From Squalus acanthias (taxonomy: Eukaryota): a DNA stretch of 64,000 nucleotides. The stretch is from the NCBI GenBank assembly GCA_030390025.1, contig JASTWF010000034.1:1674001-1738000 (forward strand). Direction: 5' to 3'. The notes beneath the pieces are model-generated. The model did no database searches. It was not told the DNA's origin and worked only from the letters and a program-made list of their open reading frames with translations. The position numbers were made by a program, and so were the translations under genes. Of this stretch, positions 12,001-39,425 are shown piece by piece (position 1 is the stretch's first letter; each line of letters opens with the position of its first letter).

Positions 12001-12740
12001 ATCTAAGCAGTGCTATACCTGCCCTTGGACTGAATGACTGGGCAGTGTAAAGGGAGCTTTACTCTGTATCTCTCGATCTAACCGGTGCTGTACCTGCCCT
12101 TGGACTGTTTGATTGGGCAGTGTAAAGGGAGCTTTACTCTGTATCTCTCTTTCTAACCCGTGCATTACCTGCCCTTGGACTGTTTGATTGGGCAGTGCAA
12201 AGGGAGCTTTACTCTGTATCCCTCTATCTCACCCGTGCTGTACCTGCCCTTGGACTGTTTGATTGGACAGTTTAAAGGGAGCTTTATTGCGTATCTCTCT
12301 CTCTAACCCGTACTGTACCTGCCCTTGGACTGTTTGATTGGGCAGTGTAAAGGGAGCTTTACTCTGTATCTCTCTATCTAACCCGTGCTATACCTGCCCT
12401 TGGAGTGTTTGATTGGGCAGTGTAAAGGGAGCTTTACTCTGTATCTCTCTATCTAACCCGTGCTATACCTGCCCTTGGACTATTTGATTGGGCAGTGTAA
12501 AGGGAGCTTTACTCTATCTCTCGATCTAACCGGTGCTATACCTGCACTTGGACTGTTTGATTGGGCAGTGTAAAGGGAGCTTTACTCTGTATCTCTCTAT
12601 CTTACCCGTGCTATACCTGCCCTTGGACTGTTTGATTGGGCAGTGTAAAGGGAGCTTTACTCTGTATCTCTCTAGCTAACCCGTGCTATACCTGCCCTTG
12701 GACTGTTTGATTGGGCAGTGTAAAGGGAGCTTTACTCTGT
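1..12740 (+). repeat. 75-bp tandem satellite array (~170 monomers, open at window start) with higher-order structure
   Basis: Monomer gggagctttactctgtatctctcgatctaaccggtgctatacctgcccttggactgtttgattgggcagtgtaaa repeats with a 75-bp period (e.g. 1, 76, 151). Recurrent 67-bp deletion variants are present. Confidence 0.98.
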
Positions 12741-12850
12741 GTATAACTTATGCTACATGCAGGAAGATTGTGACAAATGGAATTCAATCCGGAGAAGTGT
12801 GAGGTAATGCATTTGGGGAGGGCTAACAAGTCAACGGATCCTACACTGAG
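12741..12850 (+). mobile_element. Short degenerate CR1 ORF2 fragment abutting the satellite
   Basis: caaatggaattcaatccggagaagtgtgaggtaatgcattt encodes QMEFNPEKCEVMHL, the CR1 RT thumb motif. Confidence 0.75.
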
Positions 12851-13890
12851 GAACATAGGAAGAGGAGTCGGCCATTTAGCCCCTCGAGCCTGTTGCCCCA
12901 TTCAATGCGATCATTGACTGATCTGCGATCTAACTCCATAAACCCACCTTTGGCCCATATCCCTTCATACCTTTGGTTAACAAAAAGCAATAAATCTCCG
13001 ATTTAAAATTAACAATTTATCTCGCATCCACTTCCGTTTGTGGAAGAGAGTTCCAAATTTCTCCCACTTTGTGTGTCGAAGTGTTTCCAAATTTCACTCC
13101 TGAAAGGACTGCCTCTAATTCTTAGACTGTGCCTCCAGTCTTAGTATCCCCACCAATAGAATTAGTTTCTCGCTATCTACTCTATCTGTTCCCCTTAATA
13201 TCCTGAAAACTTCGCTCAGATCAGCCCTTAACCTTCTAAATTCTAGGGAATAGAACCCTAATCTCTCCTCGTAACTTAATCCTTGAAGTCTGGGTATCAT
13301 TCTGATATCCCTGTGCTGCACTCCCTCCAAGGCCAATATATCCTTCCTAAGGTGTGGTGCCCAGAACTGCTCACAGTACTCCAGGTGTGGTCTAACCAGG
13401 GTTTTGTATAGCTGCAGAATAACTTCTACCCCCTTGTAATCTAGTCCTTTAGATATAAAGACCAGCTTTCCATTAGCCTTTTTGATTATTTTCTGTACCT
13501 GTCCATGACATTTTAATGATCTATGTACCTGGACCCCCCAAGTCTCTTTGGACATCCACTCTTTTTAGCTTTTCTCCATTTAGAAAGTAACCTGTTCTTT
13601 CCTTTTAGGGTCCAAAGTGATTGACCTCACATTTGCTTACATTGAAATCCATTTGCCATAGTTTTGCCCATTCCCTTAATCTGTCAAAATCCCTTTGTAA
13701 TTTTATGGTTTCACCTACACTGCCTATAATGCTGCCTATCTTTGTGTCATCGGCACATTTGGGTATATGTCTTTCTATGACATCACCGAAGTCATTAATA
13801 AATATTGTGAATAGCTGAGGCCACAAAACACAGCCCTGCCGGACACCAGGAGTCACATCCTGCCAATTTGAGTACCGACCCATCATCCCT
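12851..13890 (-). mobile_element. CR1 LINE 3' fragment (RT C-terminus + 3' UTR), decayed
   Basis: ORFs 13605-13886 (degenerate [17 protein letters not shown]) and 13115-13555 (LYKTLVRPHLEYCEQFWAP). CR1 tail aacataggaagaggagtcggccatt. Confidence 0.93.
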
Positions 13891-13904
13891 ACGCTGTATC
13901 CTGA

Positions 13905-14235
13905 CGCTTTATAAAGGGTTATAAAGGATTATGCAGGGTTATAAATTATTATAAATGAATAGAAAGTATTATAATGATATATAAAGGTTGATAATAGAAT
14001 ATAAAGTGTTATGAATTGTTAAGGAATATAAAGGGTTGTAATGATCGACAAAGGCTTATAAAGTGTTATAATGATTGACAAAGTATTATAAAGTGATTTG
14101 AATGGGGTACAAAGTGATGCAAAATATGATAAAGGGACATGACCCTTTATAAATCATTATAATCCTTAATAACCCGTTATACACCTTTTGTAAATGTTTA
14201 TTAAGGATTCTAATGTTATAAAGAGTTATAAGGCT
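13905..14235. repeat. AT-rich degenerate short-period repeat (ataaagggtt-like)
   Basis: Runs such as ataaagggttataaaggatt, with part of the tract in the opposite orientation. Confidence 0.6.
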
Positions 14236-16061
14236 CCCACTACACTGTCCCATCAAACAGTCCCAGTGCAGGTACAGCATTTGTTAGATACTTAGTAAAG
14301 ATCCCTCTGCACTGTCCCATCAAACACTCGCAGGTTATGTACAGCATGGGTTAGATATAGAGTAAAGCGCACAATACACTGCCCGTTTTTGCACTCCCAG
14401 GGCAGGTACAGCAAGGTTTAGATACAGAGTAAACCTTCCTCTACTCTGTCACAACGCACACTCCCAGGGCAGGTTGAGTACGGGTTAGATACAGAGTAAT
14501 GCTCTCTCCACATTATGCCATCAAACAGTCCCAGGTCATGTGCAGCACGGGTTACATACAGAGTAAAGCTCTCTCTATACTATCCCAACAAGCATTCCCA
14601 GGCAGCTACAGTACGGATTAGATACAGATTAAAGATCCCTCTACACTGTCCCATCAAACATTTCCAGGGCAGGTACAGCACGGGTTAGATACAGATTAAA
14701 GATCCCTCTCCACTGTCCCATCAAACACTCGCAGTTTAGGTACAGCACAGGTAAGATGAAGAGTAAAGCTCCCTCTACACTGTCCCATCGAACACTCCCA
14801 GGGCAGGTGCAGCACAGGTTAGATACAGAGTAAAGCTCCCTCGACACTGTCCCATCAAACACTCCCAGGACATGTACAGCACAGGTAAGATGCAGAGTAA
14901 AGCTCCCTCTACACTGTCCCATCGAGCACTCCCAGGGCAGGTGCAGCACAGGTTAGATACAGAGTAAAGCTCCCTCTTCACTGTCCCATCAAACACTCGC
15001 AGGGCAGGTAGTGCACGGGTTAGATACAGAGTAAAGCTGCCTTTACAAAGACCCATCAAATAATCCCATGCCAGGTACAGCACGGGTTAGATGCAGATTT
15101 AAGCTACCTCTACAGAATCCCATCATACAATCCCAGGGTAGGTACAGCCCGCGTTAGATACCGAATAAAGCTCCCTCTACACTGTCCCATCAAACACTCC
15201 CAGGGCAAGTGCAGCACAGGTTAGATACAGAGTAAAGCTCCCTCTACACTGTCCCATCAAACACTCGCAGGACAAGTACAGCACAGGTTAGATATAGAGT
15301 AAAGCTCCATCTTCACTGTCCCATCTAACACTCGCAAGGCAAGTAGTGCATGGGTAAGGTACAGAGTAAAGCTCCCTTTACACTGTCCTATCAAAAAGTG
15401 CCAGGGCAGTTACAGAACAGTTTAGATGTAGAGTAAAGCTTGCTGGAAACTGACATCAAACATTTGCAGGGCAGGTACAGCCCGGGTTGGATACAGAGTA
15501 AAGCTCCCTATTAAATTGTGCCATAAAACAGCCCCATGGCAGGTACAGCACTTTTTTGAAAGAGTAAAGCTTCCTCATCACTGTCGCATTAAATACTCGC
15601 AGGGCAGGTAGTGCACGGGTTAGGTACAGATTAAAGCTCCCTCTACAAAGACCTATCGAACACTCCCAGGGCAGGTACAGCACAGGGATTGATGCAAAGT
15701 AAAGCTTCCTCTACAATGTCCCTTCAAATATTCCCAGGAAGATACAGCCCGGGTTAGATACAGAGTAAAGCTCCCTCTACAAAGACCCATCAAACACTCC
15801 TAGGACAGATACAGCACGGGTTAGATACAGAGTAAAGCTCCCTCTACACTGTCCCATCAAACACTCCCAGGGCAGGTACAGCCCGGGTTAGGTACAGAGT
15901 AAAGCTCCCTCTACAAATACCCATCAAACACTCCCAGGGCAGATACAGCACGGGTTAGATACAGAGTAAAGCTCCCTCTACAAATACCCATCAAACACTC
16001 CCAGGGCAGATACAGCACGGTTTAGATACAGAGTAAAGCTCCCTCTACCCTGTTCCATCAA
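14236..16061 (-). repeat. 67-bp satellite array, reverse orientation
   Basis: Repeats of tacactgtcccatcaaacactcccagggcaggtacagcacgggttagatacagagtaaagctccctc, the reverse complement of the 67-bp monomer. Confidence 0.95.
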
Positions 16062-19000
16062 ATTAGAGAGATGAATGCGTAACACAAAGACTGGTATGGG
16101 AGAAATTGGTTTCGCTTCCTGGGGCACTAGCACCAGTACTGGGGAAAGTGGGATCTGTACCGTTGGGTTGGTCTTCACCTGAACCGTGCTGGGACCAGAG
16201 TTCTGGCGAGTCATATAACTAGGGCGGTAGAGAGAGCTTTCAACTAAATATTGGGGGCCAGGGATCAAATCTGGGAAGATGTGGTAATTCAAAGAGTAGA
16301 AACAAGACAAGAGAGAAAGGTATTAATATGGGAAATGATAAACAGACCGTGACGGGAAGGGATAGAGAGTACAAATCTAAGAGTAAATCAACAGATAAGG
16401 CTAAAGGTTACAAAAATAATAAAAGGACAAAACTAAAGGCTCGGTATCTGAATGCACGTAGCATTCGAAACAAAACAGATGAACTGATGGCGCAAATAGA
16501 ATTAAATAAGTACAATCTGATAGCCATTACAGAGACATGGCTGCAGGATGACAAACATTGGGACCTGAATATTGAAGGGTACATGATATTTAGGAAAAAG
16601 TGGAGGGGTGGCTCTGTAAATTAATAATGGTATTAGCGCAATAGAGGGATGACTTAAGTTCAGGAAACCAGGATGTAGAAGCGGTTTGGGTAGAGATGAG
16701 AAATGATGAAGGCAAGATGTCACTTGTGGAAGTGGTGTACAGGCCCCCTAACAGTAACCACATGCTAGGATGGAGTATAAAGGAAGAAATAATGGGAGCT
16801 TGTCAGAAAGGTACGGCAATAATCATGGGGGATTTTAATCTACATATAGATGGAAAAATCAGATGGGCAAAGGTAGCCTAGATGAGGATTTCATAGAATG
16901 TTTTTGGGACAGTTTCTTAGAACAGCACGTTCTGGAGCCAACCAGAGAGCAGGCTATAGTGGACCTGGTATTGTGAAACAAGATAAGATTAATTAATGAC
17001 CACATAGTGAAGGTGCCCCTAGGTCGCAGCGATCAGAATATGATTGAATTTTACATTCAGTTTGAGGGAGAGAAGATTTGGTCCAAGACTAGTTTTTTTC
17101 TAACTTAAATAAGGGCAATTATGAGGGCATGATAGCAGAGCTAGCTAAAGTGAACTGGCAAACTAGAGTAAGCGATAGGTCAATAGAGCTGCAGTGGCAG
17201 ACATTTAATGGGATATTTCAGAATACACAGAATAGATCCATTCCAACGAGAAAGAAAAATTCCAAGGGGAGGACCCACCATCCGTGGTTAACTAAAAAAG
17301 TTAAAGATAGTATCGAACGTAAAAAAAAAAGCATATAATGGTGAAAAGATGGGTGGCAGGTCAGAAGATTGGACAGAATATAAACAAACAGCAAAGAATT
17401 ACTAAAAGATTAATAAGGAGAGAAAAATTAGAGTACGAGAGAAAGCTAGCTAGAAATATAAAAACAGATAGTAAGAGTTTCTATAGATATTCTAAAAAGA
17501 AAAGAGTTAACAAAGGGAGCGTTGGTCCTATAAAAAGTGAGTCTGGGGAATTAATAATGGAAAATAAGGAGATGGCAGTTGAATTGAACAGGTATTTTGC
17601 ATCGGTCTTCACTATAGAGGATACAAGTAACATCCCAGAAACAGCTGTAAATCAGGAAATGGAAGGGAGGGAGGAAGTCAAGAAAATTACAATCACCAGG
17701 GAAGTAGTACTGAGGAAATTGTTGGAGCTGCGGGCTGACAAGTCCCCGGGTCCTGATGGACTTCATCCTCGGGTCTTAAAAGAAGTAGCTAGTGAGATAG
17801 TTGAGGCGTTGGTTTTAATTTTCCAAAATTCCCTAGATTCGGGGAAGGTTCCATTAGATTAGAAAATAGCGATTGTAACTCCTTTATTCAAAAAGGGAGG
17901 GAGACAGAAAGCAGGAAACTACAGGCCAGTTAGCTTAACGCCTATCTTAGGGAAGGTGCTAGAAACTATTATTAAAGACGTTATAGCAGGGCACTTGTAA
18001 AAGTTCAAGGTAATCAGGCAGAGTCAGCATGGCTTTGAGAAACCAATTTATTGGAGTTCTTTGAGGAAGTAACATATGCTGTGGATAAAGGGGAAGCTTG
18101 GATGTACTGTACTTAGATTTCCAGAAGGCATTTGATAAGGTGCCACATCAAAGGTTATTTCGGAAAATCAAAGCTCATGGTGTAGGGGGTAACATATTGG
18201 CATGGATAGAAGATTGGCTAGCTAACCGGAAACAGAGTGTAGGCATAAATGGGTCATTTTCTGCTTAGCAAATGTAACGTGTAGTGTGCCACAGGGATAA
18301 TGCTGGGGCCTCAACATTTTACAATTTATATAAATGACTTGGATGAAGGGACCGAAGGTATGGTTGCTAAATTTGCTGATGACAAAAAGATAGGTAGGAA
18401 AGTAATTGTGAAGAGGACATATGGAGGCTACAAAGGTATATAAATAGGTTAAGTGAGTGGGCAAAGATCTGGCAAATAGAGTATAATGTGTGAAAATGTG
18501 CAATTGTGCATTTTGGCAGAAAAAATAAAAAATAAGCATATTATCTAAATGGTGAGAGATTGCAGAGCTTTGAGATGCAGCGGGTTCTGGGTGTCCTAGT
18601 GCATGAATCGCAAAAGGTTAGTATGCAGGTACTGCGAGTAATTAGGACAGCTAATAGAATGTTAACGTTTATTGCGATGGGAATTGAATCGAAAGTAGGG
18701 AGTTTATGCTTCAGTTATAGAGGGCATTGGTGAGACCACATCTGGAGTACTGAGTACAGTATTAGTCTCCTTATTTAAGGAAGGATGTAAATGCGTTGGA
18801 AGCAGTTCAGAGAAGGTTTACTAGACTAATACCTGGAATGGGCGGGTTGTCTTATGAGGAAAGGTTGGACAGGCTAGGCTTGTATCCACTGGAGTTTAGA
18901 AGAGTAAGAGGTGACTTGATTGAAACCTATAAGATCCTGAGGGGTCTTGACAGGGTGGATGCGGAGAGGATGTTTCCTCTTGTGGGAGAATCTAGAACTA

Positions 19001-19296: not shown

Positions 19297-19299
19297 TAC

Positions 19300-19472
19300 C
19301 TGCCCCGGGGGGATTGGGAGGGGCTTGGCCACTTTAACATTTTTCCAGGCTGCTCTTTGATTGGATCCCTGCTCCTGTGTGATGTCACTTGGAAACAGGG
19401 CCCCGCCCCTGGTTACGGCCCATCAGTGGGATGTCAGTGTGGGAGGAGCTGGAGTGTCCGCTGACACTGGGA
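19300..19472 (+). promoter_or_regulatory. Module copy A: promoter-like segment and short exon 1
   Basis: Two inverted CCAAT (attgg), CRE-like tgatgtca and GC box ccccgcccc, followed by donor GA|GTGAGT at 19473. The core is shared with 3 other copies. Confidence 0.55.
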
Positions 19473-19657
19473 GTGAGTTTAGTCCCAATAAACAGGGCAA
19501 AGGGCTGAAAGGAACAATTGAATAGTAATGTAAGTAATTCAAATACACATTAATTGCAAATATAATGAAATTAGATACAATCCCAGTCACAAAAACAGCC
19601 CCACTGTATTCCAGGTACAGGATCTGGGATTAATATGAATCATTTTTCTATTGACAG

Positions 19658-19828
19658 TCTCTGGGAGAGAGCAATATCTCAGGAAGGTGGAGAGAGAGAA
19701 GTCGAATCATCGCCTCACTGACTGGGACTGGAGAAATGTCGCTGGTTTCACAGAGCAGATCTGGTGGGACCGAGACCTCCCGTGTCGGAGACGGGATAAA
19801 ACGGGAAGCTTCAACAATGATTGGAAAG
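19658..19828 (+). other. Module copy A: 171-bp exon 2 of an unidentified multicopy gene (possible start MSLVSQSRSGG...STMIGK)
   Basis: Acceptor ttttctattgacag, donor AAG|GTGAGG. Same length in three paralogues. Confidence 0.6.
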
Positions 19829-19959
19829 GTGAGGAACTTTACTGAGAATTGCACCAGTCCAGGATTCTGCCGAGGTGAGAGTCTAACCAGATACTGGGAG
19901 CTGTTCAACATCTGCCGTCAGGCTCGGCCTTTGATGTGGCAAGTTGAGCGGAGCTTAAC

Positions 19960-21080
19960 TCGGAGATAAACCTTGCCCGTACCTCACCCGGGAGTGTTTG
20001 ACACTTGCATGTAGTGAAATCTTTATTCTGTATTGACCCCATGCTGTACCCGAGCTGGTTGTGCTTCATTGGGTAGTGTCAAGGGAACTGTACGCTGCAT
20101 TGAACATATGATGTATCAGAGTTGGTTGTGTTGATGAACCAAATTGGAGGAGCTTTACTCTGGATCGAACCCGTGCTGTACCTGCCCTGGGAGTGTTTGA
20201 TGGGACAGTGCAGAGGGAGCTAACTCTGTATCTAACCCGTGCTGTCCCTGCCCTGGGAATGTTTGGTGGGGCAGTGTAGAGGGAGCTTTACTCTGTATCT
20301 AACCCGTGCTGTACCTGCCCTGTGAGAGTTTTCTGGACAGTGTAGAGGGAGCTTTACTATGTATCTAACCCGTGCTGCACCTGCCCTGGGAGTCTTTGAT
20401 GGGACAGTGTAGAGGGAGCTTTACTCTGTATCTAACCCGTGCTGTAACTGCCCTGGGAGTGTTTGATGGGACAGTGTAGAGGGAGTTTACTTTTTATCTA
20501 ACCCGTGCTGTACCTGCCTTGGGACTGTTTCGTGGGCAGTGTAGAGGGAGCTTTACTTTGAATTTAACCTGTGCTGTACCTGCCGTGGGAGTGTTTGATG
20601 GGACAGTGTAGAGGGAGCTTTACTTTGTATCCAACCCACTGTACCTGTCCTGGGAGTGTTTGATGGGACAGTGTAGAGGGAGCTTTACTTTGTATCTAAC
20701 CCGTGGTGTACCTGCCCTGGGAGTGTTTGATGGGACAGTGTAGAGGGAGCTTTACTTTGTATCTAACCCATGCTGTTCCTGCCCTGGGAGTGTTTGGTGG
20801 GGCAGTGTAGAGGGAGCTTTACTCTGTATCTAATCCGTGCTGTACCTGCCCTGGGAGTGTTTGGTGGGGCAGTGTAGTGGGAGCTTTACTTTTTATCTAA
20901 CCCGTGCTGTACCTGCCCTGGGAATGTTAGGTGGGCAGTGTAGAGGGAGCTTTACTCTGTATCTAATCCGTGGTGTACCTGCCCTGGGACTGTTTGGTGG
21001 GGCAGCGTAGATCAGCTGAACTGTGTATCTAACCCACTGTACCTGCTCTGGAGGTATTTGATGAGAGCTTTACTCTGTAA
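19960..21080 (+). repeat. 67-bp satellite array
   Basis: gggagctttactctgtatctaacccgtgctgtacctgccctgggagtgtttgatgggacagtgtaga, period 67 (20347 to 20414). Confidence 0.95.
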
Positions 21081-22625: not shown

Positions 22626-23060
22626 GAAACCACTCCGGGAGGGGACATTTCAGGGGTGGTCACCCATCATTGTGTGGGTCTAATTGCCACCTCACTCTCT
22701 TGCAGTTAGTCTCGGAGTTCGTGACTGAGCAGAATGGCCCGCTGCTGCCCCGCGCACCCCACACGTTCAAGATGGACGACCTGCTGGCGGAGATGCAGGA
22801 GGTTGAGAACTGAAGGCTTTGACATGCTTAGCAGCGAGGTAAGATCACCCCATGGAGCAGAGGGTCAAATCAGCACAGGCTGGTGATGGAGACTGGGTGT
22901 TTCCTGCCCAGATTCGGGCCCTGTTTTCACACCCCAAGCCCCCGTTGTGGCAGACCTGGCGATGTCGGGGACCTGGGTCGAGTTACTGGCCACCGAGCCG
23001 ACGGCAGACACATCGCAGGCCGACAGTGAAGCCGATTGGTCAATGGAGTTCATCGCGGGC

Positions 23061-24750
23061 CACTCAGCATTGTGGGTACTGCGTCACTGAGCCCGGGCAT
23101 TGTGGGCACAGGATCATTGACACTGAGCATTGTGGGTACAGTGCCACTGACCCCGGGCATTGTAGGTACAGAGTCACTGACACTGGGCATTGTGTGGACA
23201 GAGTCACTGATCCCGGGCATTTTGGGTACAGAGTCACTGACACTGGGCATTGTGGGTACAGAGTCACTGACACTGAGCATTGTGGGTACAGAGTCACTGA
23301 GCCCGGGCATTGTGGGCACAGGATCATTGACACTGGGCATTGTGGGTACAGGGCCACTGACCCCGGGAATTGTGGGCACCGGATCATTGACACTGGGCAT
23401 TGTGGGTACAGAGTCAATGTCAGTGGGCATTGTTGGTACAGGGTCACTGACACTGGGCATTGTGGGTACAGCGTCACTGACCCCGGGAATTGTGGGTACA
23501 GAGTCACTGACACTGGGCATTGTGGGTACAGGGCCACTGACACTGGGCATTGTGGGTACAGTGCCACTGACACTGGGCATTCTGGGTACAGGGCCACTGA
23601 CACTGGGCATTGTGGATACAGGGCCACTGACCCCGGGCATTGTGGGTACAGAATCACTGACACTGGGCATTGTGGGTACAGGATCACTGACACTTGGCAT
23701 TGTGGGTACAGAGTCACTGACCCTGGGCATTGTGGGTACAGTCACTGACCCTGGGCATTGTGGGTACAGGATCACTGACACTGGGCATTGTGGGTACAGG
23801 GCCACTTACACTGGGCATTGTGGACACAGGGTCATTGACACTGGGCATTGTGGGTACAGAGTCACTGACACTGGGCATTGTGGGTACAGGGCCACTTACA
23901 CTGGGCATTGTGAGTACAGTCACTGAACCTGGGCATTGTGGGTACAGGGCCACTGACAGTGGGCATTGTGGGTACAGAGTCACTGACCCCGGGCATTATG
24001 GACACAGGGCCACTGACCCTGGGCATTGTGGGTACAGAGTCACTGAACCTGGGCATTGTGGGTACAGGGTCACTGACCCCGGGCATTATGGACACAGGGC
24101 CACTGACCCTGGGCATTGTGGGTACAGGGTCACTGATCCTGGGCATTGTGGGTACAGAGTCACTGACCCCGGGCATTATGGACACAGGGCCACTGACCCT
24201 GGGCATTGTGGGTACAGAGTCACTGAACCTGGGCATTGTGGGTACAGGGTCACTGACCCCGGGCATTATGGACACAGGGCCACTGACCCTGGGCATTGTG
24301 GGTACAGGGTCACTGACCCTGGGCATTGTGGGTATAGGGTCACTAACCCCGGGCATTATAGACACAGGGCCACTGACCCTGGGCATTGTGGGTACAGGGC
24401 CACTGACCCCGGGCATTGTGGGTACAGGTTCATTGACCCTGGGCATTGTGGGTACAGGGCCACTGACCCTGGGCATTGTGGGTACAGGGCCACTGACCCT
24501 GGGCAATGTGGGTACAGAGTCACTGAGACTGGGCATTGTGGGTATAGGGTCACTGACACTGGACATTGTGGGTACAGGGTCACTGCCCCTGGGCATTATG
24601 GGTACAGGGTCACTGCCCCTGGGCATTGTGAGTACAGAGTCACTGACCTCGGGCATTGTGGGTACAGGGACACTGACACTGGGCATTGTGCGTACAGTGT
24701 CACTGACACTGGGCATTGTAGGTACAGGGCCACTGACCCCGGGCATTATT
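23061..24750 (+). repeat. 30-bp minisatellite (~56 copies)
   Basis: cactgacactgggcattgtgggtacagagt with a 30-bp period; explains the long repetitive ORFs in all frames. Confidence 0.97.
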
Positions 24751-24904: not shown

Positions 24905-25365
24905 TAATGTCAGGGTAATGTACAGGGAGCTCTGTATTATACCTGCTCAGGGTGTGCACGATGCTGACACTGGGTATAAAGTGGGGGTACACTGTCAGGG
25001 TAATGTAGAGGGAGCTCTGTACTGTACCTGCCCTGGGAGTGCACGTGGCTGACACTGGGTATAAAGTGGGGGTACACTTTCGGAGTAATGTTCAGGGAGC
25101 TCTGTATTGTACCTGCCCTGGGAGTGCTGGATGCTAACACTGGGTATAAAGTGGGGGTACACTCACCGGGTAATGTAGAGGGAGCTCTGTATTGTACCTG
25201 CCCTGGGAGTGCACGATGCTGACACTGGGTATAAAGTGGGGGTACACTCTCAGGGTAATGTAGAGGGAGCTCTGTATTGTATCTGCCCTGGGAGCACTCG
25301 ATGCTGACAATGGGTATAAAGTGGGGGTACATTTTCGGAGTAATGTCGAGGGAGCTCTGTATTCT
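24905..25365 (+). repeat. 85-bp tandem repeat (~5-6 copies), related to the 67-bp satellite
   Basis: gggagctctgtattgtacctgccctgggagtg... at 25095, 25180 and 25265. Confidence 0.9.
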
Positions 25366-25374: not shown

Positions 25375-26672
25375 GAAGCATAGAAGATAGGAGCAGGAGT
25401 AGGCCATTCGGCCCCTCGAGTCTGCTCCGCCATTTATTGCGATCATGGCTGATCATCCAAATTCAGAACCCTGTCCCTGCTTTCTCCACATATCCCTTGA
25501 TCCCTTTAGCCTTAAGAAATACATCCAACTCTTTCTTGAATATATTTAATGAATTGGCCTCTACTGCCTTCTGTGGTAGAGAATTCTACAGGTTCACCAC
25601 TCTCTGGGTGAAGAAATTCCTCCTCATTTCTGTCCTAAATGTCTTACCCCTTATCCTTAGACTGTGACCCCTGGTTCTGGACTCCCCGACCATCGGGAAC
25701 ATCCTTCCTGCATCTAGTCTGTCCAGTCCTGTCAGAATTTTATAAGTTTCAATGAGATCCCCTCTCATTCTTCTAAACTCCAGCGAGTATAATCCAAATC
25801 GAACCAATCTCTCCTCATACGTCATTCCTGCCATCCCAGGTATCCGCGTGGTGAATCTTCGCTGAACTCCTTCCATGGCAAGAACCTCCTTCCTCAGATA
25901 AGGCAACCAAAACTGCTCACAATACTCAAGATGTGGTCTCACCAAGGCCCTGTACAACTGCAGCAAGACATCCTTGTTCCTGCACTCAAACCCTCTCGCT
26001 CCGAAGGCCAACATCCATTTGCCTTCTTAACCGCCTGCTGCACCTGCATGCTTACCTGCAGCGACTGGTGCACAAGGACACCCAGTTCTCGTTGCACTTC
26101 CCCTTCTCCCAATCTATTGCCATTCAGATAATAATCTGCCTTCCTGTTTTTGACACCAAAGTGGATAACCTCGCATTTATCCACGTTATATTGCATCTGC
26201 CATGCTTCTGCCCAATCATCCAACCTGTCCAAATCATCCTGGAGTTTCTCTGCATCCTCCTCACAGCACACACGCCCACCCAGCTTTGTGTCGTCTGCAA
26301 ACTTGGAATATTACATCTAGGTCCCTTGTCTAGATCATTTAATATATATTGTGAATAGCTGGGGTCCAAGGACCGATCCCTGCGGTACCCCACTAGTCAC
26401 TGCCTGCCACTCGGAAATAGACCCATTAATTCTTACTCTCTGCTTTCTGTCTGCCAACCAGTTCTCTATCCAAGTCAATACCTTGCCCCCCAATCCCATG
26501 TGCCTTAACTTTACACGCTAATCTCTTATGCGGGACCTTATCAAAAGCCTTTTGAAAGTCCAAATACACCACATCCACTGGTTCTCCCTTATCTATTTTA
26601 CCAGTTGCATCCTCAAAACATTCCAGTAGATTAGTCAAACACGATTTACCTTTTGTAAATCCATGTTGACTT
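25375..26672 (-). mobile_element. CR1 LINE 3' part (RT), decayed
   Basis: VDVVYLDFQKAFDKVPH, WQMQYNVDKCEVIHFG, LYRALVRPHLEYC. Tail ataggagcaggagtaggccattcggcccctcg. Confidence 0.95.
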
Positions 26673-27205
26673 TGGAGGGGCTATGGCCGCTTTGTGTCAT
26701 TATTCCCGGCTGCTGTGTGATTGGCTCCCGGTTCCTTTGTGATGTCACCTGGAGTCAGGTTTTCGACCCTGGTTACGGCCCATCAGTGGGATGTCGGTGT
26801 GGGAGGAGCTGGAGTGACAGCTGACACTGGCGGTGAGTTGAGTCAAATTAAATATAATCAGTCACAAAAACAGTCCCACTGTATTCCATTTACAGATTCT
26901 GGGATTAATATGAATGATTTTTCTATTGACAGTCTCTGGGAGTGAGCAATATCTCAGGAAGGTGGAGAGAGAGAAGTCGAATCATCGCCTCACTGACTGG
27001 GAATGGAGAAATGTCGTTGGGTTCACAGAGCAGATCCGGCGGGACCGAGATCCCCATTTTCGGAAAAGGGTTAAAACAGGAAGCTTCAACAATGATTGGA
27101 AAGGTGAGGAACTTTACTGAGAATCCCATCAGTCCAGGATTTTTCCAATGTGAGAGTCTAACCAGATACTGGGAGCTGGTCAACATCTCGCATCATGCTC
27201 GGCTG
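26673..27205 (+). other. Module copy B (promoter, exon 1 donor 26833, 100-bp intron, exon 2 26933-27103)
   Basis: Paralogous to 19330-19925; splice sites retained. Confidence 0.65.
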
Positions 27206-27594
27206 AACCAAATTAGTGGGAGCTTTACTCTGTCCGCCACCCATTCCGTGTCTGCCCAGAGAGTGTTTTGGGTGTCCATTGCAGAGGAAGCTTTATTTTG
27301 CATCTCTCTATCTTACCCGTGCTTTACCTGACCTTTGACTGTCTGATTGGGCAGTCTAATGGGAGCTTTAGTCTGTGTATAACGCATGATATATGCAGGA
27401 AGAAATCACTGGACTGGTCAGTTGTGCAGAAAAGGGGCAAATGGAATTCAATCTGGAGAATTGTGAGGTTATGCGTTTCGGAAGTGCTGACAAGGCAAGG
27501 GATCCCACAGTATCAGAGATTGTCAGATACAGAATGAATCGCAAACTCATACACCGCACCAGAGACTGCCAGAAACAGAATGAATCGCAAACTC

Positions 27595-28175: not shown

Positions 28176-28347
28176 CTTCTTAGGCAGTCCCTCGGAAACG
28201 AGGATGACTTGCTTCCACACTAAAAATGAGTTCTCAGGTGACTGATGAGTCCAATGTGGGACCTACAGTCTCTGTCACAGGTGGGGCAGACGGTCGTTGA
28301 AGGGACGGGTGTGTGGGGTGCTTGGGTTGACGTGCGCTCCTTACGTG
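28176..28347 (-). mobile_element. RTE-clade LINE 3' end
   Basis: The minus strand encodes a terminal zinc-finger-like CPTCDRDCRSHIGLISHLRTHF*, followed by tail gtggaagcaagtcatcctcgtttccgagggactgcctaagaa. Confidence 0.7.
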
Positions 28348-29975
28348 TCTGCACCGGCCATCAAGCCCTGTCTATTCCAAGACCATTTTCCAGCACTTGG
28401 TCCGTAGCCTTGTATGCTATGGCGTTTCAAGTGCTCATCTAAATGCTTCTTGAATGTTGTGGGCGTTCCTGCCTATACCACACTTTAAGGGAGTGAACTC
28501 CAGATTTCAACCACCCTCTGGGTGAAAAAGTTTTGCCTCAAATCCCCTCTAAACCTCCTGCCTCTTACCTTGACACTGTGCCCCCTGGTTATTGACCCCT
28601 CTACGAAGGGAAGAATTTCCTTTTTATCCACCCTAGCTATGCCCCTCATAATTTTGTACACCTCAATCAGTTCCCCCCTCAGCCTTCTCTGCTCTAAGGA
28701 AAACAACCCAATCCTGTCCAGTCTCTCTCCACTGCTGAAACGCTCCAGCCCAGGTAACATCCTGGTGAATCTCCTCTGCACCCTCTCCAATGCAATCACA
28801 TCCCTCCTATAGTGTGGTGACCAGAACTGCACACAGTATTCCAGCTGTGGCCTAACCAACGTTTTATACAGCTGCATCATAACCTCCCTGCTCTTATCTT
28901 CTATGACTCGGCTAATGAAGGCAAGTATCCAATATGCATTTTTAACCACCTTATCTACCTGTCCTGCTGCCTTCAGGGATCTATGTACATGCACGCCAAG
29001 GTCCCTCTGATCCTCTGTCCTTCCTAGGATCCTACCATTGTGTATTCCCTTGCCTTGTTTGTCCTCCCAAAATGCATCACCTCACACTTTTCTGGGTTAA
29101 ATTCCATTTGCCACTGTTCTGCCCATCTAACCATCCCGTCTATATCGTCCTGTAGTCTGAGGCTTCCCTCCTCGCTATTTACCGCTCCACCAATTTTCGT
29201 GTCATCTGCAAACTTACATTCTTATCTAAATCATTAATGTACACTACAAACAGCAAAGGACCCAGCACCGATCCCTGCGGTACACCACTGGACACTGGCT
29301 TCCAGTCACAAAAACAACCTTCGACCATCACCATCTGCCTCATGCCACTAAGCCAATTTTGAATCCAATGTGCCAAATTGCCCTGGATCCCATGGCCTCT
29401 TACCTTCTTGACCAGACTCCCATGTGGGACTTTATCAAAAGCCTTACTGAAGACCATGTAGACGACATCAACTGCACTATCGTCATCCACACACCTAGTC
29501 ACCACCTCAAAAAATTCAATCAAATTGGTTCGATATGATCTCCCCCTGACAAAGCCATGCTGACTATCACTGATTAATCCTTGCCTCTCCAAGTGGAGAC
29601 TAATTCTGTCCCTCAGAATTTTTCCAATAATTTCCCTATCACTGATGTTAGGCTCACTGGCCTGTAATTCTACTACCTTCTTGAACAATGGTACTACGTT
29701 AGCTGTTCTCCAGTCCTCTGGCACCTCCCCTGTGGTCAGAGAGGTTCTGAAAATTTGTGTCAGAGCCCCGGCAATCTCCTCCCTTGCCTCACACAGCAGC
29801 CTGGGATACATCCCGTCAGGGCCTGGGGATTTATCCACTTTTAAGTCCGCAAAAACCGCTAGTACCTCCTCCCTCTCAATACTAATTTGTTCAAGTATAT
29901 CACAATACCCCTGCCTGATTTCTATGCCAACATCGTCCTTCTCCACAGTGAACACAGATGCAAAATATTCATTTC
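28348..29975 (-). mobile_element. CR1 LINE ORF2 fragment
   Basis: ORFs 29179-29955 ([32 protein letters not shown]) and 28485-28994. Confidence 0.95.
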
Positions 29976-32013
29976 AGAGCTTTACTCTGTACCAAACATT
30001 GACTGAACCTGCCCTGGGATTTTTTGATGGGACAGTGTAGAGAGTTTTTCTCTGTATCTAACCCGTGCTGTACCTGCCCTGAGAGTGTTTGATGTTACAT
30101 TGTAGAGGGAGGTTCACTCTGTATCTACCCTGTGCTTTACCTGCCCTGGGAGAGTTTGATGGGACAGTGTAAACGGATCTTTAATCTGTATCTAATCCAT
30201 GCTGCACCTGCTTTGGGAGTGTTTGATGGGCCAGTGTTGATGCAACTTTACTTTGTGTCTAACTCGTGTTGTGCCTGTCTTGGAAGGGTTTGATGGGACA
30301 CTGTAGAGGCAGCTTTAGTCTGTATCTAACACATGCTGTACCTGCTCTGGGAGAGTTTGATGGGATAGTGTCGAGGGAGTTTTAATCTGTCTTACTGGTG
30401 TTCTGCATGTCCTGGATGGCTTTAATGGGACAGTGTCGAGAGAGCTTTACTCTATCAAACGTGGTCTGAACCTGCCCTGGGAGTGTTTTTCTGGGACAGT
30501 TCAGAGGGAGATTTACTCTATCTGACCTGTTCTGAACCTGCCCAGGCAGTGTTTGATGGAACAGTGTAGAGGGGTCTTTACTCTGTATCAAACGTGGACT
30601 GAACCTGCCATGGGAGTGTTTGATGGGACAGTGTAGAGGGAGCTTTACTCTGTATCTAACCGGTGCTGTCCCTCCCCTGGGGTTGTTTGATGGGACAGTG
30701 TAGAGGCAGCGTTACTCTGTATCTAACCCGTGCTGTACATGCCCTGGGAGTGTTTGATGGGACAGTGTAGAGGCAGCTTTACTCTGTATCTAACCCATGC
30801 TGTACATGCCCTGGGGGTGTTTGATGGGACAGTGTAGAGGAAGCTTTACTCTGTATCTAACCCGTGCTGTACCTGCCCTGACAGTGTTAAATTGGACAGT
30901 GTTGATGCAGCTTTACTCTGTGTCTAACTCGTGTTCTACCTGTCCTGGACGGGTTTGATGGGACAATGTAAAGGAAGTTTTACTCTGTATCTTAACCGTG
31001 TTGTACCTGCCATGGGGGAGTTTGATGGGACAGTATCGAGGGAGCTTTACTCTGTTGCTAACCACTGCTGTACATGACCTTTAAATGTTTGATGGGACAT
31101 TGTAGAGGGAGCTTTACTCTGTATCTAACCCATGCTGCCCATGCTGTTCCTGCCCTGGGATAGTTTGATGAGACAGTTTAGAGGGAGCTTTACTCTGTAT
31201 CTAACCCATGCTGCCCATGCTGTTCCTGCCCTGGGATAGTTTGATGAGACAGTTTAGAGGGAGCTTTACTCTGTATCTAACACATGCTGTACCTGCCCTG
31301 GGATTGTTTGATGTGACAGTGTAGTGAGACTTTTACTATTTACCAATCATTGTTTGAACCTGCCCTGGGAGTGTTGGATGGGACAATGCACAGGGAGATT
31401 TAGTCTGTATCTAACCAGTGCTGTATCCAAACAGTGCTGTACCTGCCCTGGCCGGGTTTGATGGGACAGTGTAGAGGGAGCTCTAAACTATATCAAACAT
31501 GGTCTGAACCTGCCAGGGGAGTATTTGATGGGACAATGCAGAGATGAACTTTGCTCCTTATCTAACCTGTGCTGTACCTGCCCTGTGAGAGTTTAATGGG
31601 ACAGTGTAGAGGGAACTTTACTCTGTGTCAAACGTATTCTTAACCTCCTGTGGTTGTGTTTGATGAGACAGTGTAGAGTGAGATTTACTCTGTTTCTAAC
31701 CTGTGTGAAAATGCCCTGGGTGGGTGGGTTTGATGGGACATTGAAGAGGGCACTTAACTCTGTAGGTAAATCGTGTTGTGCCTGTCCTGGGAGAGTTTGA
31801 GGGAAAAGTCTAGAGTCAGCTTTACCACTATCAAACATGGTCTCAACCTGTCCTGGGAGTGTTTCATGGGGCAGTGAAGAGGGAACTTTACTCTGCATCT
31901 AACCCGTGTTATACGTGTCCTGGGAGCGATTTGATTGAATAGTGTAGAGGGAGCTTTACTCTCTATCTAAACCGTGCTGTATCTGCACTTGGAGTGTTTG
32001 ATGGGACAGTGTA

Positions 32014-33118: not shown

Positions 33119-34060
33119 TCAAACATGGACTGAACCTGACCTGAGGTCCTTTTATGGGACAGTGTAGAGGGAGCTTTACTCTGTATCTAACCCGTGCTGC
33201 ACCTGCCCTGGGAGTGTATCGTGGGACAGTTTAGAGGGAACTTTACTCTCTGTCAAACATGTTCTGAACATGCCCTGGGAGTGTTTGTTGGGACAGTGTA
33301 GAGGGGGCATTACTTTGTATCTAACCTGTGCTGAAAGTGCCCTGGGTGTGTTTGATGGGACATGGTAGAGGGAGCTTTATTCTGATTCTAATCCTTGATG
33401 TACTTGCCCTGGGAGTGTTTGATGGGATACTGTAGGGGGCGCTTTACTCTGTATCTTACCCATGCTGTACCTGCCCTGGGAGTGTTTGATGGGACAGTGC
33501 AGGGAGCGCTTTACTCTGTCTCTAACCAGTGTTGTACCTGCCCTGGGTGTGTTTGATGGGACAGTGTTGATGCAGCTTTATTCTGTGTCTAACTCGTGAT
33601 CAGCCTGTCCTGGACGGGTTTTGAAGGGACAGTGCAGGGGGAGCTCTACCCTGTATCAAACATGGTCTGAACTAGCCATGGGAGTGTTTGATGGGACCGT
33701 GCAGAGATGAGCTTTACTCTGTATCTAACCCGTGCTGTACCTGCCCTGTGAGAGTTTGCTGGGACAGTGTAGAGGGACCTTTACTCTGTATCTAACCTGT
33801 GCTGTACCTGCCCTGAGAGTGTTTGATGGGTCAGTGTAGAGGGACCTTTACTCTGTATCTAACCTGTGCTGTACCTGCCCTGTGAGAGTTTGTTGGGCCA
33901 GTGTAGAGGGACCTTTACTCTGTATCTAACCTTTGCTGAAACTGCCCTGGGAGTGTTTGATGGGACAGTGCTGAGGGAGGTTTACACTGTGTCTAAGTCG
34001 TGTTGTGCCTGTCCTGGGAGAGTTTGATGGGGCAGTGTTGGGGTAGATTTACTCTGCCTC

Positions 34061-35105
34061 TGACCTATTCTGCCCAATTGGTTTGTGCCGGTGTTTATTC
34101 CCCACACAAGCCTCCTCTCACCCCTCTTCATCTAATTCTATTAGCATAACCTTATATTCCTTTCTCCCTCATGTGTTTATCTAGCTTCTCCTTAAATGCA
34201 TCTGTGCTATCCGCCTCCACTACTCCCTGTGGTAGTGAGTTCCACATTCTCAACTCTCTTTGGGTGAAGAATTTATCCTGAATTCTCCATTGGATTTATT
34301 AGTGACTATCTTCTATTGATGATCTCCAGTTTTGGACTCCCACAAGTGGAAACATTTTCTCCACGACCACCTTTATAACCTTCTCATAATCTTAAAGACC
34401 TCTATCCGGTCATCCATCAGCATTCTCTTTCTTCAAGAGAAAAGAGACCCAGCCTGTTCAGCCTTTCCTGATAAGTATATCCTCTCAGTTCTAGGATCAT
34501 CCTTACAAATCTCCTTCTCCAGTGCCTCTATATTAAGAACATAAGAAATAAGAGCAGGAGTAGGCCATTGGGCCCCTCGTAATAATATGGAGACCAGAGC
34601 TTTTCACAGTACTCCAAGTATGATCTAACCCAGGGTCAGTGCAAGTTTAACATAACCTCCCTGCTTTGCAATTCTATCCCTCTGGAAATGAACTCCGGTG
34701 CTTTTTGTTTTGTATGGCCCTATTAACCTCCATTGGTACTTTTAGTGTTCTGTGTATCTGTACCCCGAAATCGCATTGCCCCTCTACCCCATTTATACTC
34801 TTATTTTCAAAGCAGTATCTGACCTCCTTATTCTTCCTACCAAAAGGCGCCACCTCACACTTATCTATATTGGAAATTCATTCGCCATTTACACTTCCAT
34901 TCTGCAAGTTTATTAATGTCTTCTTGCATTATGTCACAGTCTTCATCAGTAGTAACTGTACCTCCCAATTTGGTATCATTGACAAATTTTGAAATTGTAC
35001 TTCAAATTCCCGAGTAGAAATTGTTTATGTAAATTGTGAACAGCAGCGGTCCCAGCATCGATTCCTGTGGAACACCACTTTCAACCTTTTGCCAGTCTGG
35101 AAAGC
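34061..35105 (-). mobile_element. Degenerate CR1 3' fragment
   Basis: Minus-strand WQKVESGVPQESMLGPLLFTIYIN plus CR1 3' UTR sequence. Confidence 0.85.
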
Positions 35106-35687
35106 TGCTCTCTGTTTTGTGGAATTCAATGGCGGTGTGTTTACCCACGATCCCCCGCGCGGCAGAAAGTGCCCAATCAATGACTACAGGAGTCCAGTGC
35201 GCAGGCGTGAGACCGGGGAGTGCTCCGAGCATGCGCAGTACGAGTCGTGCAGACGAGGCAATGGCGGCAGCAGGAACATAGCGGGCAGAGAAACGTTAAC
35301 AACGTTTCTGGACGCTAACTTCGTCAGAGCATTTCCTGTTGTACTAATGGCCTAACAAACGATTCCAGAGCCGGCAGGAGATTCTGGGGGCCGGGGAGGA
35401 ACAGGCGGCGCGTGGTCTGGGAAGCTTCACAAACACCCGGCCTAGGCCTCAGGCCCCGAATAAAACCCCGCGGGGCCTCGTGTTTGCGCCGCAGCGCCAG
35501 GCCCGGCCGCGCGGGGCGACTCTCCGCCAACTTGCTGAAGGCTTTCTCCCCGCCGACAGGCCCGGGTTACCCCGGCAACCGGCCGCCATCTTTGTGAAGG
35601 AAGGCGGGACTTTTCCCCGCGCCGCCATGTTGGACAGGGCGGGGTCAGGGCGCATACGCGGCCCTCAGTGCAACTGCAGCAGAAGCA
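35106..35687. promoter_or_regulatory. CpG-rich promoter-like island
   Basis: Dense CpG; CCAAT 35173; NRF1-like tgcgcaggcg / gcatgcgcag; YY1-like atggcggc (35261) and gccgccatctt / gccgccatgtt (35582, 35621); GC box 35637. Confidence 0.55.
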
Positions 35688-36150
35688 CTTTTTTATTATT
35701 CGTTTATGGGATGTGAGGGTCGCTGGCAAGGCCAGCATTTATTGCCTATCCCTAACTGCCCTTGAGAAGGTGGTGGTGAGCTGCCTTCTTGAACCGCTGC
35801 AGACGATTGGTAGGGAGTTCCAGGATTTTCAAGCAGCAACGAGGAAGGATAGGCGATATACTTCCAAGTCAGGATGGTGTGTGACTTCGAGGGGAACCTG
35901 GAGGTGGTGGGGTTCCCATGCGTCTGCTGCCCTTGTCCTTCTAGGTGGAAGAGATTGCGGGTTTGGGTGGTGCTGGCGAAGATGTCTTGGCGAGTTGCTG
36001 CAGTGCATCTTGTAGATGGTACACACTGCAGCCACGGTACGCCAGTGGTGGAGGGAGTGAATGTGTAAGGTGATGGATAGGTTGTCAATCAAGCGGGCTG
36101 CTTTGTCCTGGATGGTGTCGAGCTTCTTGAGAGTTGTTGGAGCAGTACGC
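35688..36150 (-). mobile_element. 3' end of a second CR1-group LINE family
   Basis: TTLKKLDTIQDKAARLI..HSLHHWRTVAAVCTIYKMHCSN; same tail as 21525 and 42200. Confidence 0.85.
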
Positions 36151-36169
36151 ATCATATGAGGGGAGCGGG

Positions 36170-36558
36170 GTCGGAGACGAGTATGATTGTACACCCTGTG
36201 TACATGCCCAGTGAGAAAGCACACCAGGAGCAGAGCCTGGTCAATGTGACCCTGTGACCCTCGAGTGGGAGGGGCTCCGGCCGCTTTGTGACATTGCTCC
36301 TTGCTGCTGTGTGATGACACCTGGAGACACTGCCCCGCCCCTGGTTACGGCCCATCAGTGGGATGTCAGTGTGGGAGGAGCTGGAGTGACAGCTGACACT
36401 GGGAGTGAGTTTTCACAATAAACAGGGCAATGGACAGAATAGAACAATACAATAATAAAGTTAGTAATTCAAACATTCATTAATTGCAAAAATAGTCACA
36501 TTGAATATAAATTTGGTCACAAAAATGCACCCCCCCCCCCCTGTATTCTGGGATTAAT
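36170..36558 (+). other. Module copy D (promoter + exon 1, donor 36405; truncated in intron 1)
   Basis: Near-identical to 37065-37445; ends at an L2 fragment before exon 2. Confidence 0.65.
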
Positions 36559-36825
36559 GGCTTCGGTCTTCCCAATATTTACTTGGAGAAACTTTTGCTC
36601 ATGTCAGTCAAGCAGTCTGACAATTTAGACACCGTGGAGGGGTCGAGAGAAGAGGTAGTGAGGTAGAGCTGGGTGTCGTCAGCGTACATGTGGAAACTGA
36701 CTGTGTTTCTGGATGATGTCACCAAGGGGCAACATGTAGATGAGAAATAGGAGGGGAGGCAAGGAGAGATCCTTGGGGGACACCAGAGGTAACGATGTGG
36801 GAGCGGGAAGAGAGACTGACTGATA
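36559..36825 (-). mobile_element. L2 LINE RT fragment
   Basis: FHMYADDTQLYLTTSSLDPSTVSKLSDCL on the minus strand. Confidence 0.85.
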
Positions 36826-37064
36826 TTCTGGTCTTTTCCGCACAGTATGATCCCAGCCCCAGACGGATCCCTCACTGTGGAGAGAGAGAGAGCGACAGAG
36901 ACAGTGAGGGAGCAGATACGTAGAGAAGAAAATAAATACTGGGGTAGAGTTTGACGTTTAGTAGGTGCTATAGTACAAACCGGGTAATTGTGAATCAGCC
37001 ACCCATTTTGCACCGATGAAATAAAACTCGGTAGAGATGCAGGGCAGGATCCCGGTTCAATCCC

Positions 37065-37920
37065 GGAGACGGGGCTGATTGTACACCCTGTGTTCATGCC
37101 CAGTGAGACTGCACACCAGGAGCAGAGCCTGGTCAATGTGACCCTGTGTCACCACGAGTGGGAGGGGCACCGGCCGCTTTGTGACATCGTTCCTAGCTGC
37201 TGTGTGATGTCACCTGGAGACAGGGCCCCGCCCCTAGTTACAGCCCATCAGTGGGATGTCGGTGTGGGAGGAGCTGGAGTGACAGGTGACACAGGGAGTG
37301 AGTTTAGTCCCAATAAACAGGGCAATGGACAGAAAAGAACTATTCAATATTAAAGTAAGTAATTCAAACACACTGATTAATTGCAAAAATAATCAAATTG
37401 AATATATTTGTGGTCACAAAAATGCTCCCCCTGTATTCTGGAATTAATATTTATCATTTTTCTATTGACAGTCTCTGGGAGTGAGCAATATCTCAGGAAG
37501 GTGGAGAGAGAGAAGTCGAATCATCGCCTCCCTGACTGGGACTGCAGAAATGTCGCTGGGTTCACAGAGCAGATCTGGTGGGATCGAGAACCCCAGTGTC
37601 GGAGACGGGATAAAACGGGAAGATTCAACAATGATTGGAAAGGTGAGGAACTGTACTGAGAATCCCATCAGTCCAGGATTTTGCTGAGGTCAGAGTCTAA
37701 CCAGATACTGGGAGCTGTTCAACATCTGCCGTCAGGCTCGGCCTTTGATGTGGCAAGTTGAGCGGAGCTTAACTCGGAGATAAATCTTGCCCGTACCTCA
37801 CCCGGGAGTGTTTGACACTTGCATGTACTGAGATCTTTATTCTGTATTCATCCCATGCTGTACCCGAGCTTGTTGTGCTTCATTGGCTCGTGTCAAGGGA
37901 GCTGTACGCTGCACATGCTG
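37065..37920 (+). other. Module copy C (promoter, exon 1 donor 37298, exon 2 37472-37642, start of intron 2)
   Basis: Paralogous to 19330-20100, including the sequence downstream of exon 2. Confidence 0.68.
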
Positions 37921-38056
37921 TATTAGAGGGAGCTTTGCATGTCACCCGCGCTGTACCTGCTCTGCGAGTGTTTGAGTGGACAGTGCAGAGGAAGGTTTAG
38001 TCTGTATCTCTCGATCTAACCCGTGCTGTACCTGCCCTTGGACTGTTTGATTGGGC

Positions 38057-38398
38057 CCCATTCAATGCGATCATTGACTGATCTGCGATCTGACTGCATA
38101 AACCCACCTTTGGCCCATATCCCTTCATAACTTTGGTTAACAAAAAGCAATAAATCTCCGATTTAAAATTAACAATTTATCTAGCATCAATTGCCGTTTG
38201 TGGAAGAGAGTTCCAAATTTCTCTCACTTTGTGTCGAAGTGTTTCCTAATTTTACTCCTGAAAGGACTGCCTCTAATTCTTAGACTGTGCCTCCAGTCCT
38301 AGTATCCCCACCAATGGAAATAGTTTCTCGCTATCTACTCTATCTGTTCCCCTTAATATCCTGAAAACTTCGCTCAGATCAGCCCTTAACCTTCTACA
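38057..38398 (-). mobile_element. CR1 3' UTR fragment, duplicate of 12896-13240
   Basis: Near-identical text ccattcaatgcgatcattgactgatctgcgatc...cccttaaccttcta. Confidence 0.88.
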
Positions 38399-39425
38399 TT
38401 GTTAAATTGGGTGTGATAATAAATACACAGGCTAGAACAGTCACAGTTAATTGTTAAATTTGGAATGATAACCAATACACAGGGTAAAACTTTCAGTTAA
38501 TTGTTAAATTGGGTATGATAACCATACCCAGGGTAAAACTGTCAGTTAATTCTTAAATTTGGTGTGATAACCATACACAGGTTAAAACTGTCAGCTAGTG
38601 TTAAATTGGATGTGATAACCAATACACAGGGTAAAGCTTTCAGTTAATTGTTAAATTGGGTATGATAACCAGTACACAGGGTTAAACTGTCAGCTAATTG
38701 TTAAATTTAGTGTGATAACCAATACACAGGGTAAAACTGTCAGTTAATTGTTAAATTGGGTATGATAACCAATACAGAGGGTAAAACTGTCAGCTAATTG
38801 TTAAATTGGGTATGATAACCAATAGACAGGGTAAAACTGTCACAGTTAATTGTTAAATTGGGTATGATAACAAATACACAGGGTAAAACTGTCAGTTAAT
38901 TGTTAATTTGGGTAAGATAGCCGACAGTTTTACCCTGTGTATTGGTTATCATATCCAATTTAACAATTAACTAATACACATGGTTTAACTGTCAGTTAAT
39001 TGTTAAATTGGGTATGATAACCAAATCATAGTGTAATACTCTTACAGTTAATTGTTAAATTGGGTATGATAACCAATACGCAGGGTAAAACTGTCACAGT
39101 GAATTGCTAAATTGGGTATGATAACCAATACACATTGTAAAATTGTCACAGTTAATTGTTAAATTGAGTATTATAACTAATACACAGGGTAAAGCTGTCA
39201 CAGTTAATTGTTAAATTGTGTATGATAACCAATACACAGTGTGAAACAGTTAGTAAATTATTATATTGGGTATGATAACCAATACACAGAGTAAAACAGT
39301 TAGTTAATTGTTAAATTGGGTATGATAACCACTACACTGAGTAAAACTGCCGCAGTTAATTGTTAAATTGGGTATGATCGCCAATAAACAAGGGAGAAAG
39401 TTAATTGTTAATTCTTAAATTGGTA
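38399..39425 (+). repeat. ~50-52-bp AT-rich minisatellite (~20 copies) with one inverted monomer
   Basis: gttaattgttaaattgggtatgataaccaatacacagggtaaaactgtca. Confidence 0.95.

Follow-up and report, generated by a model that had tools for sequence, protein, structure and literature searches.

Probable growth and loss of a 75-bp tandem repeat at a putative intronic site in Squalus acanthias

The 75-bp array and the module copies

We analysed a 64,000-nucleotide stretch of Squalus acanthias DNA (assembly GCA_030390025.1, contig JASTWF010000034.1, positions 1,674,001 to 1,738,000 of the forward strand), hereafter the window, in which coordinates are counted from the first letter. The window opens with a 75-bp tandem array and carries, further to the right, short stretches of the same repeat inside copies of a module that resembles the head of a gene. 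We lean slightly towards a reading in which this repeat grew and was lost at one variable intronic site, leaving one plausible seed copy (module B) and one deletion relic (module C).

The array occupies positions 1–12741 on the plus strand, and its left end lies beyond the window. A tandem-repeat scan places it at 1–12740 with a period of 75 and 170.8 copies, and 170 full units were tiled across the visible 12.7 kb. Like a satellite, it is a long head-to-tail array of one unit family in which variants have spread through multi-unit duplication. The units differ pairwise by 7.75% on average (confidence interval (CI) 5.1–10.8%) and lie at a mean distance of 4.8% from their consensus. Sequencing error was considered as the source of this diversity and ruled out, private changes amounting to just 39 in 12,750 cells. 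Diversity is 9.3% in the diverged right edge (about 10.3–12.7 kb, the last 2.5 kb of the array), where nearest-neighbour units are 1.7 bases apart, compared with 0.3–0.4 in mid-array. The interior is built of recently duplicated blocks: the longest duplicated run spans 23 units at a lag of 43 with 1.0% difference, other runs occur at lags of 12–107, and a 67-bp deletion variant with nine occurrences marks the duplicated blocks. The array has an old edge and a young interior. An earlier note on this DNA had described it as a single monomer amplified ~170-fold, a picture that does not fit the 110 distinct units found among 170 or the block duplications that join them.

Self-comparison of the window with arrays masked returned four plus-strand copies of the module, at 19.3–20.1 (A), 26.7–27.5 (B), 36.2–36.6 (C′) and 37.1–38.1 kb (C). 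Module A (19302–20148) comprises a promoter-like stretch, a putative short exon ending near 19472, a 171-bp exon (19658–19828) and an intron start with decayed units of a 67-bp minisatellite (67-type units). It is followed at 20149–21063, on the plus strand, by a 13.8-copy array of the 67-bp unit, in the intronic position that a 75-type unit takes up in B and C. The head of B (26661–27285) has its 171-bp exon at 26933–27103 and keeps one decayed 67-type unit; the decayed units seen in A and C are deleted, the equivalent of A 19928 joining the equivalent of A 20135 at B 27203. The head of C (37064–37990) holds the exon at 37472–37642, decayed units and one decayed 67-type unit. C′ (36172–36578) consists of the promoter-like stretch and first exon only, without the 171-bp exon. 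In A, B and C the 171-bp stretch sits between a pyrimidine-rich AG and a GT donor, and with these putative splice sites the module reads as a promoter and two 5′ exons, one short and one, of 171 bp, that would be mostly untranslated, with the repeat in the second intron. The tandem repeats close behind the modules differ (67 bp at 20149, 40 bp at 27591 and 50 bp at 38398), and homology between the copies ends at or near them.

The 75-bp unit corresponds to the window's 67-bp minisatellite unit with an 8-bp internal duplication and a few substitutions. Five arrays of the 67-bp unit lie in the window; the parent unit is present in many short arrays and the long array derives from it, as in local amplification. 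The 75-type insertion motif occurs at 123 places in the array; its sole occurrences elsewhere in the window are at 38003, following C, and in variant form at 27301, following B. Outside the array, diagnostic 75-type motifs belong to these two modules alone. In four of four sequencing runs, the commonest kind of loose contig end beside C's unit was 67-type (for example 1249 contigs at 38051 in run X1). The 75-bp unit adjoins CR1 fragments but does not align to them; the name CR1 is one that we presume. CR1-type elements and the 67-bp repeat give the window the look of cartilaginous-fish DNA. At the intron site A and C keep about three decayed 67-type units, which are deleted in B, and A then continues into its 67-bp array. 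With that array in module A at the matching position, the site must already have been a repeat of variable make-up. Judged from its sequence it is an old repeat tract, and the 75-bp array did not arise in unique DNA, which tells against the earlier note's idea of birth from a lone monomer.

Other length variants of the 67-bp unit occur in the window. At 31087–31289 a 76-bp variant with a 9-bp internal duplication is present in 2.7 copies with 96% likeness, a parallel case that is independent of the 75-bp array and at an earlier stage of growth. A further length variant forms an 85-bp array of 5.3 copies at 24910–25363, its unit including the core of the 67-bp unit. A variant unit start, GAGCTAACTCTG, is found in seven units of the 75-bp array (within 1–12741) and outside it only at 20217, the second unit of module A's 67-bp array, in a position equivalent to the 75-type unit of B and C; an old common variant, conversion and recurrence are candidate explanations for this sharing.

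Junctions of the array with modules B and C

At its right end the array passes into a decayed unit remnant joined to a short fragment of CR1 open reading frame (ORF) 2 (12742–12847, plus strand). A second CR1-type fragment follows on the minus strand, 3′ end first (12848–13870, with ORFs at 13115–13564 and 13605–13928). The first junction recurs behind module B after about one 75-type unit, as the earlier note had observed: in the masked self-comparison 12663–12845 matches 27299–27509 with an expect value (E) of 1e-37, and 104 of 122 ungapped columns (12726–12847) are alike, the 18 differences giving a divergence of 14.8% (CI 9–22%). The array copy has two deletions (18 and 10 bp) relative to B. 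Both copies enter the ORF2 fragment at the identical base and read GGATCC, whereas GGAAT stands there in all three of the other CR1 copies that extend this far. Behind its single decayed 67-type unit, B has one full 75-type unit (27287–27361) and a partial second start, about 1.2 units in all, and then the shared junction, the whole occupying 27287–27511 on the plus strand. Head, 75-type unit and junction stand in an unbroken series, with no second CR1 fragment behind them.

Module B is the deepest branch: its promoter, exon and intron start lie 9–16% away from those of A and C. It keeps both flanks of the short repeat and predates the diversity of the array, its junction divergence of 14.8% exceeding the 7.7% found among array units, as expected if B represents the seed. 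A unit flanked by two copies of its own start would also provide the substrate needed for unequal exchange. We consider it fairly likely that B is in a seed-like state, with about 1.2 units and both flanks. Several observations weigh against this assignment. Of B's 11 non-ancestral differences, seven recur in two or more array units, where about 25–28% would be expected (P 0.007–0.016), and its nearest full-length array unit is the penultimate one, at 10 differences in 75. Contraction from first to last unit could equally leave B looking as it does. These points favour an account of loss only, in which the 75-bp array predates the three copies altogether: recombination between the first and last units would have shortened B, C would have suffered a deletion, and no birth is seen. 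Both B and C bear other deletions in the same intron, and turnover inside an array makes its diversity look younger than the array's age. Without the first 16 columns, present in duplicate in a seed, the sharing falls to four of seven (P 0.09), and a common mutational bias could contribute to it. Given also that B's divergence stands above the array's diversity, we regard loss alone as unlikely.

Module C ends in another way. The earlier note had placed behind it one 75-type unit followed by a CR1 piece that also lies beside the array. The CR1 piece is as described: 38055–38400 (minus strand) and 12895–13242 are identical at 332 of 348 positions (E 1e-161), with 14 substitutions in 346 columns, and the piece stops at the start of a 50-bp array. 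The unit, however, has only 66 of 75 bases (37991–38056, plus strand) and breaks off at a deletion junction, where it is joined to the CR1 piece at the base matching 12896 with a 2-base microhomology, GC standing on both sides. The deletion spans at least 180 bp, among them the junction that the array copy has in common with B. As the product of a deletion, C could have lost any number of units and cannot report the ancestral copy number; it does not display a pre-amplification state. A contig from a related species tracks module C through head and 75-type unit over 167 letters, with four differences, its match ending at 38056; as we read the coordinates of the record, the contig continues past that position with letters that do not match.

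A one-base-longer variant, TTGACTG, is present in the CR1 pieces of C and the array and in none of six other aligned CR1 3′ ends. At three of the seven difference positions among those listed for this piece, C and the array share a base that is found at no more than 7–11% depth in run X1, and at the remaining four C alone differs; the comparison uses runs from organisms related to the host, with a best share of words of 0.48. The rare bases common to C and the array look inherited. The earlier note's view that the shared bases are unusual is supported at those three of the seven positions, where they are not the majority in the closest CR1 copies of related species. Plain CR1 similarity as the cause of the matches was ruled out by the common break point, GGATCC, TTGACTG and these three bases, the host's own CR1 subfamilies being unsampled.

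Derived junctions and bases held in common mark these sites as segmental duplicates and support descent of the array, B and C sites from what would have been one ancestral locus. B's unbroken link from head to junction, together with the base A at unit column 2, common to B and C, suggests that a module head probably lies to the left of the array, beyond the window. Two findings count against such a head. The head of C is 5–7% from module A in exon 2 and intron start compared with 9–11% from B, yet module A lacks the 75-type repeat, so at least one module is recombinant; and flanks get swapped at the intron site, module A having a different right flank there. An account built on such swaps invokes ectopic recombination among 67-type tracts, of which the window holds five separate arrays: the DNA left of the 75-bp array would be unrelated, and C would be an A-like head joined to a piece of the array locus. 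That would explain why C is A-like on its left and array-like on its right, as well as the differing right flank of module A. In B, nevertheless, nothing interrupts the run from the head through the 75-type unit to the right junction, and the base shared by B and C at column 2 makes the link between head and 75-type unit ancestral. We judge wholesale flank swapping to be improbable.

Timing of growth and the module family

The flank shared by C and the array differs at 14 of 346 columns, or 4.0% (CI 2.2–6.7%), less than the array units differ among themselves (bootstrap P 0.017 for all units and 0.002 for the right edge). When growth from one unit after the C split was simulated at equal rates, none of the growth models produced 7.7% diversity in more than 1 of its 700 runs. 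At column 23 of the unit, 84 of the 170 units have T and 82 have G; B has T, C has G, and 26 of 32 right-edge units have T. The duplication structure argues that T is ancestral, and C shares the derived G with about half of the array. At equal rates, the joint pattern of diversity and polymorphism arose in 33 of 600 runs with an array older than C and in 0 of 600 with birth after C. Amplification probably began before C split off, and the excess of array diversity over flank divergence, together with the shared polymorphism at column 23, makes it likely that the ancestor of C had two or more units.

This timing has weaknesses. Without CpG columns the P value becomes 0.054 for all units, which is marginal, and 0.007 for the right edge, and the simulations rest on one simple growth model. 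The result is also rate-dependent: when the mutation rate of the array was raised 2-, 3- or 4-fold, the joint pattern came out in 8, 8 and 3 of 600 runs under birth after C and in 16, 2 and 1 of 600 under an older array, so that best case against best case stands at about 4:1 for an older array, which is favoured, not proven. Higher variation, by 1.1- to 4.1-fold, is reported near human centromeric arrays by Logsdon et al. 2024 (PMC11062924). Such rates matter for a strict model in which B and C are both ancestral and one unit was amplified ~170-fold after the C split. C's unit is close to some array units (from column 13 on, 0 differences from two deletion-variant units and one from several others) and has ancestral 67-type bases at columns 32 and 38, and the strict model fits if the array mutated 2–3 times faster (8/600). 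It requires reversion or parallel change at column 23, reaches a diversity of at least 7.7% at equal rates only in the rare runs given above, and draws on C, which as a deletion product carries no information on ancestral copy number. We find it rather improbable. Of the short copies that the earlier note took for the pre-amplification state, B can still be called seed-like; C cannot, being a deletion product of a lineage in which the array is probably older than the split.

The history that we favour, growth and loss at one site, would run as follows. The starting point would be an old tract of the dispersed 67-bp minisatellite within intron 2 of a gene head present in many copies. There an 8-bp internal duplication in one unit, beside a CR1 fragment, produced the 75-bp type, as the composition of the unit shows. 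B would have branched off first with about 1.2 units between its two flanks, and this is most likely the seed state. Along the other branch, unequal exchange at the repeated starts may have multiplied the unit, with the second CR1 fragment inserting behind it, perhaps in that order. A later duplication would have given rise to C, in which an end-joining deletion ran from the first 75-type unit to the inside of the second CR1 fragment, probably taking further units with it; the deletion is legible at the junction and its timing is our estimate. The array kept growing from within by block duplications of up to ~40 units, leaving the older layer at its edge. The process was most likely neutral.

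In runs from related species, individual differences within the module are each borne by tens of distinct contigs (for example 77 at 37623 in run X2 and 55 at 37286 in X1), so the module belongs to a many-copy family, although contig depth itself yields no copy number. Part of module C is contained in 20 of the 22 rows of a sequencing-run survey, from nine studies, and none of these rows has half of the module's words; no RNA run containing module C is among the rows listed, and the run-level comparison covered module C (36950–38395) in 4 of the 22 runs. A joint of exon 1 to exon 2 is absent from the 15 joints listed. An apparently higher depth over the 171-bp exon in the presumed-RNA run X12 was not counted, as contig depth cannot rank gene parts. 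Two reading frames are open in all three copies of the exon, so an open frame says little. Comparison of the exon with longer proteins gave no match at E ≤ 1 among 1213 candidates, Pfam gave none above cut-off, and the best match in the ESM Atlas (0.79) is not credible; a profile search with the exon returned two matches, both repeat-inflated and unrelated, which were discarded. DNA patterns had 0 matches in metagenome and viral contigs, and Rfam had 0 over 12000–64000. As a candidate lead, the module may be the 5′ end of a shark NLR gene; no CARD-like or NACHT ORF was recognised among 116 listed ORFs of the window.

Three heads with the 171-bp exon lie in the window, each with different DNA behind it. 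A tentative reading, on the doubtful side, is that members of a very large shark gene family recombine at the intron-2 tract, a hub where promoter and 5′-exon heads would be swapped and stranded and new unit lengths would repeatedly be spawned. If this were true, the paralogues of the family would record seed, grown and deleted states, and rates of birth and loss could be counted in one genome.

Several features stand apart from the repeat site. Two exon-like stretches at 22703–22845 and 22908–23070, the first with in-frame stops, may be PEX5-like, an assignment that Pfam, PDB, protein and Atlas searches did not confirm. An exon-like ORF at 44860–45045 ends in a GT donor; it may be the first exon of the shark GPR139-like receptor family, and it has no Pfam match. 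A GC-rich, CpG-rich promoter-like stretch occupies 35100–35680, and no gene was recognised behind it. A 30-bp array of 56 copies (23067–24747) has long open frames on both strands, which are probably a by-product of the unit length. The 50-bp array behind C includes a 60-bp inverted piece (38913–38972). CR1-type fragments at 28345–29974 and 49711–51353 are 87% alike over 1.66 kb, the closest CR1 pair in the window after that of C and the array.

Comparison with known systems

Alpha-satellite arrays expand in layers, and the present array is like them in having older, diverged units at its edge and young multi-unit blocks inside; it is far smaller, its blocks are irregular and it has no fixed higher-order period. 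In the beta-satellite and KRAB zinc-finger cassettes of human 19p12, a tandem repeat is inherited with a multiplying gene cassette, whereas the repeat described here would be intronic and changes its unit length between paralogues. The human Y minisatellite MSY1 is long and its paralogue DYF155S2 has about one unit. That contrast between duplicated loci resembles ours, with a different unit and organism. DYF155S2 is not mentioned in the available sections of PMC2599865. No paper on the 67-bp motif or on an elasmobranch satellitome was found in literature outside subscription papers, and the main texts of two shark genome papers (PMC11406177 and PMC13100897), in the parts available, do not describe the 67-bp repeat, although shark satellite units may be listed in their supplements.

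The process is a known one, and the present site is a new example, a clear but ordinary case of gain and loss of repeat DNA. Its interest lies in the fact that satellites are rarely caught at the outset of their formation with flanks intact, and that one site here connects a parent unit with the new type derived from it, with a probable seed copy, with a long array and with a copy cut short by deletion. The site also illustrates a trap, in that a one-unit paralogue can be a deletion relic rather than an ancestor. A survey of the whole family could tell how fast such arrays grow and disappear in a group of vertebrates that evolves slowly.

Two published systems come close. In Lathyrus sativus, satellites originate from short arrays inside long terminal repeat (LTR) retrotransposons (Vondrak et al., PMC7004042). 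There as here, short arrays reside within a many-copy host and expand only occasionally; the host here resembles a spliced gene head, not an LTR element, and the visible array measures 12.7 kb with its left end beyond the window. Ruiz-Ruano et al. 2016 (PMC4935994) describe how one of many dispersed short arrays grows long and how length variants form a superfamily. Our site shares with this local amplification the many short arrays of a family, one of them grown long, and differs from it in that the variant, the likely seed and the deleted copy appear to be tied to one ancestral site by their common flanks.

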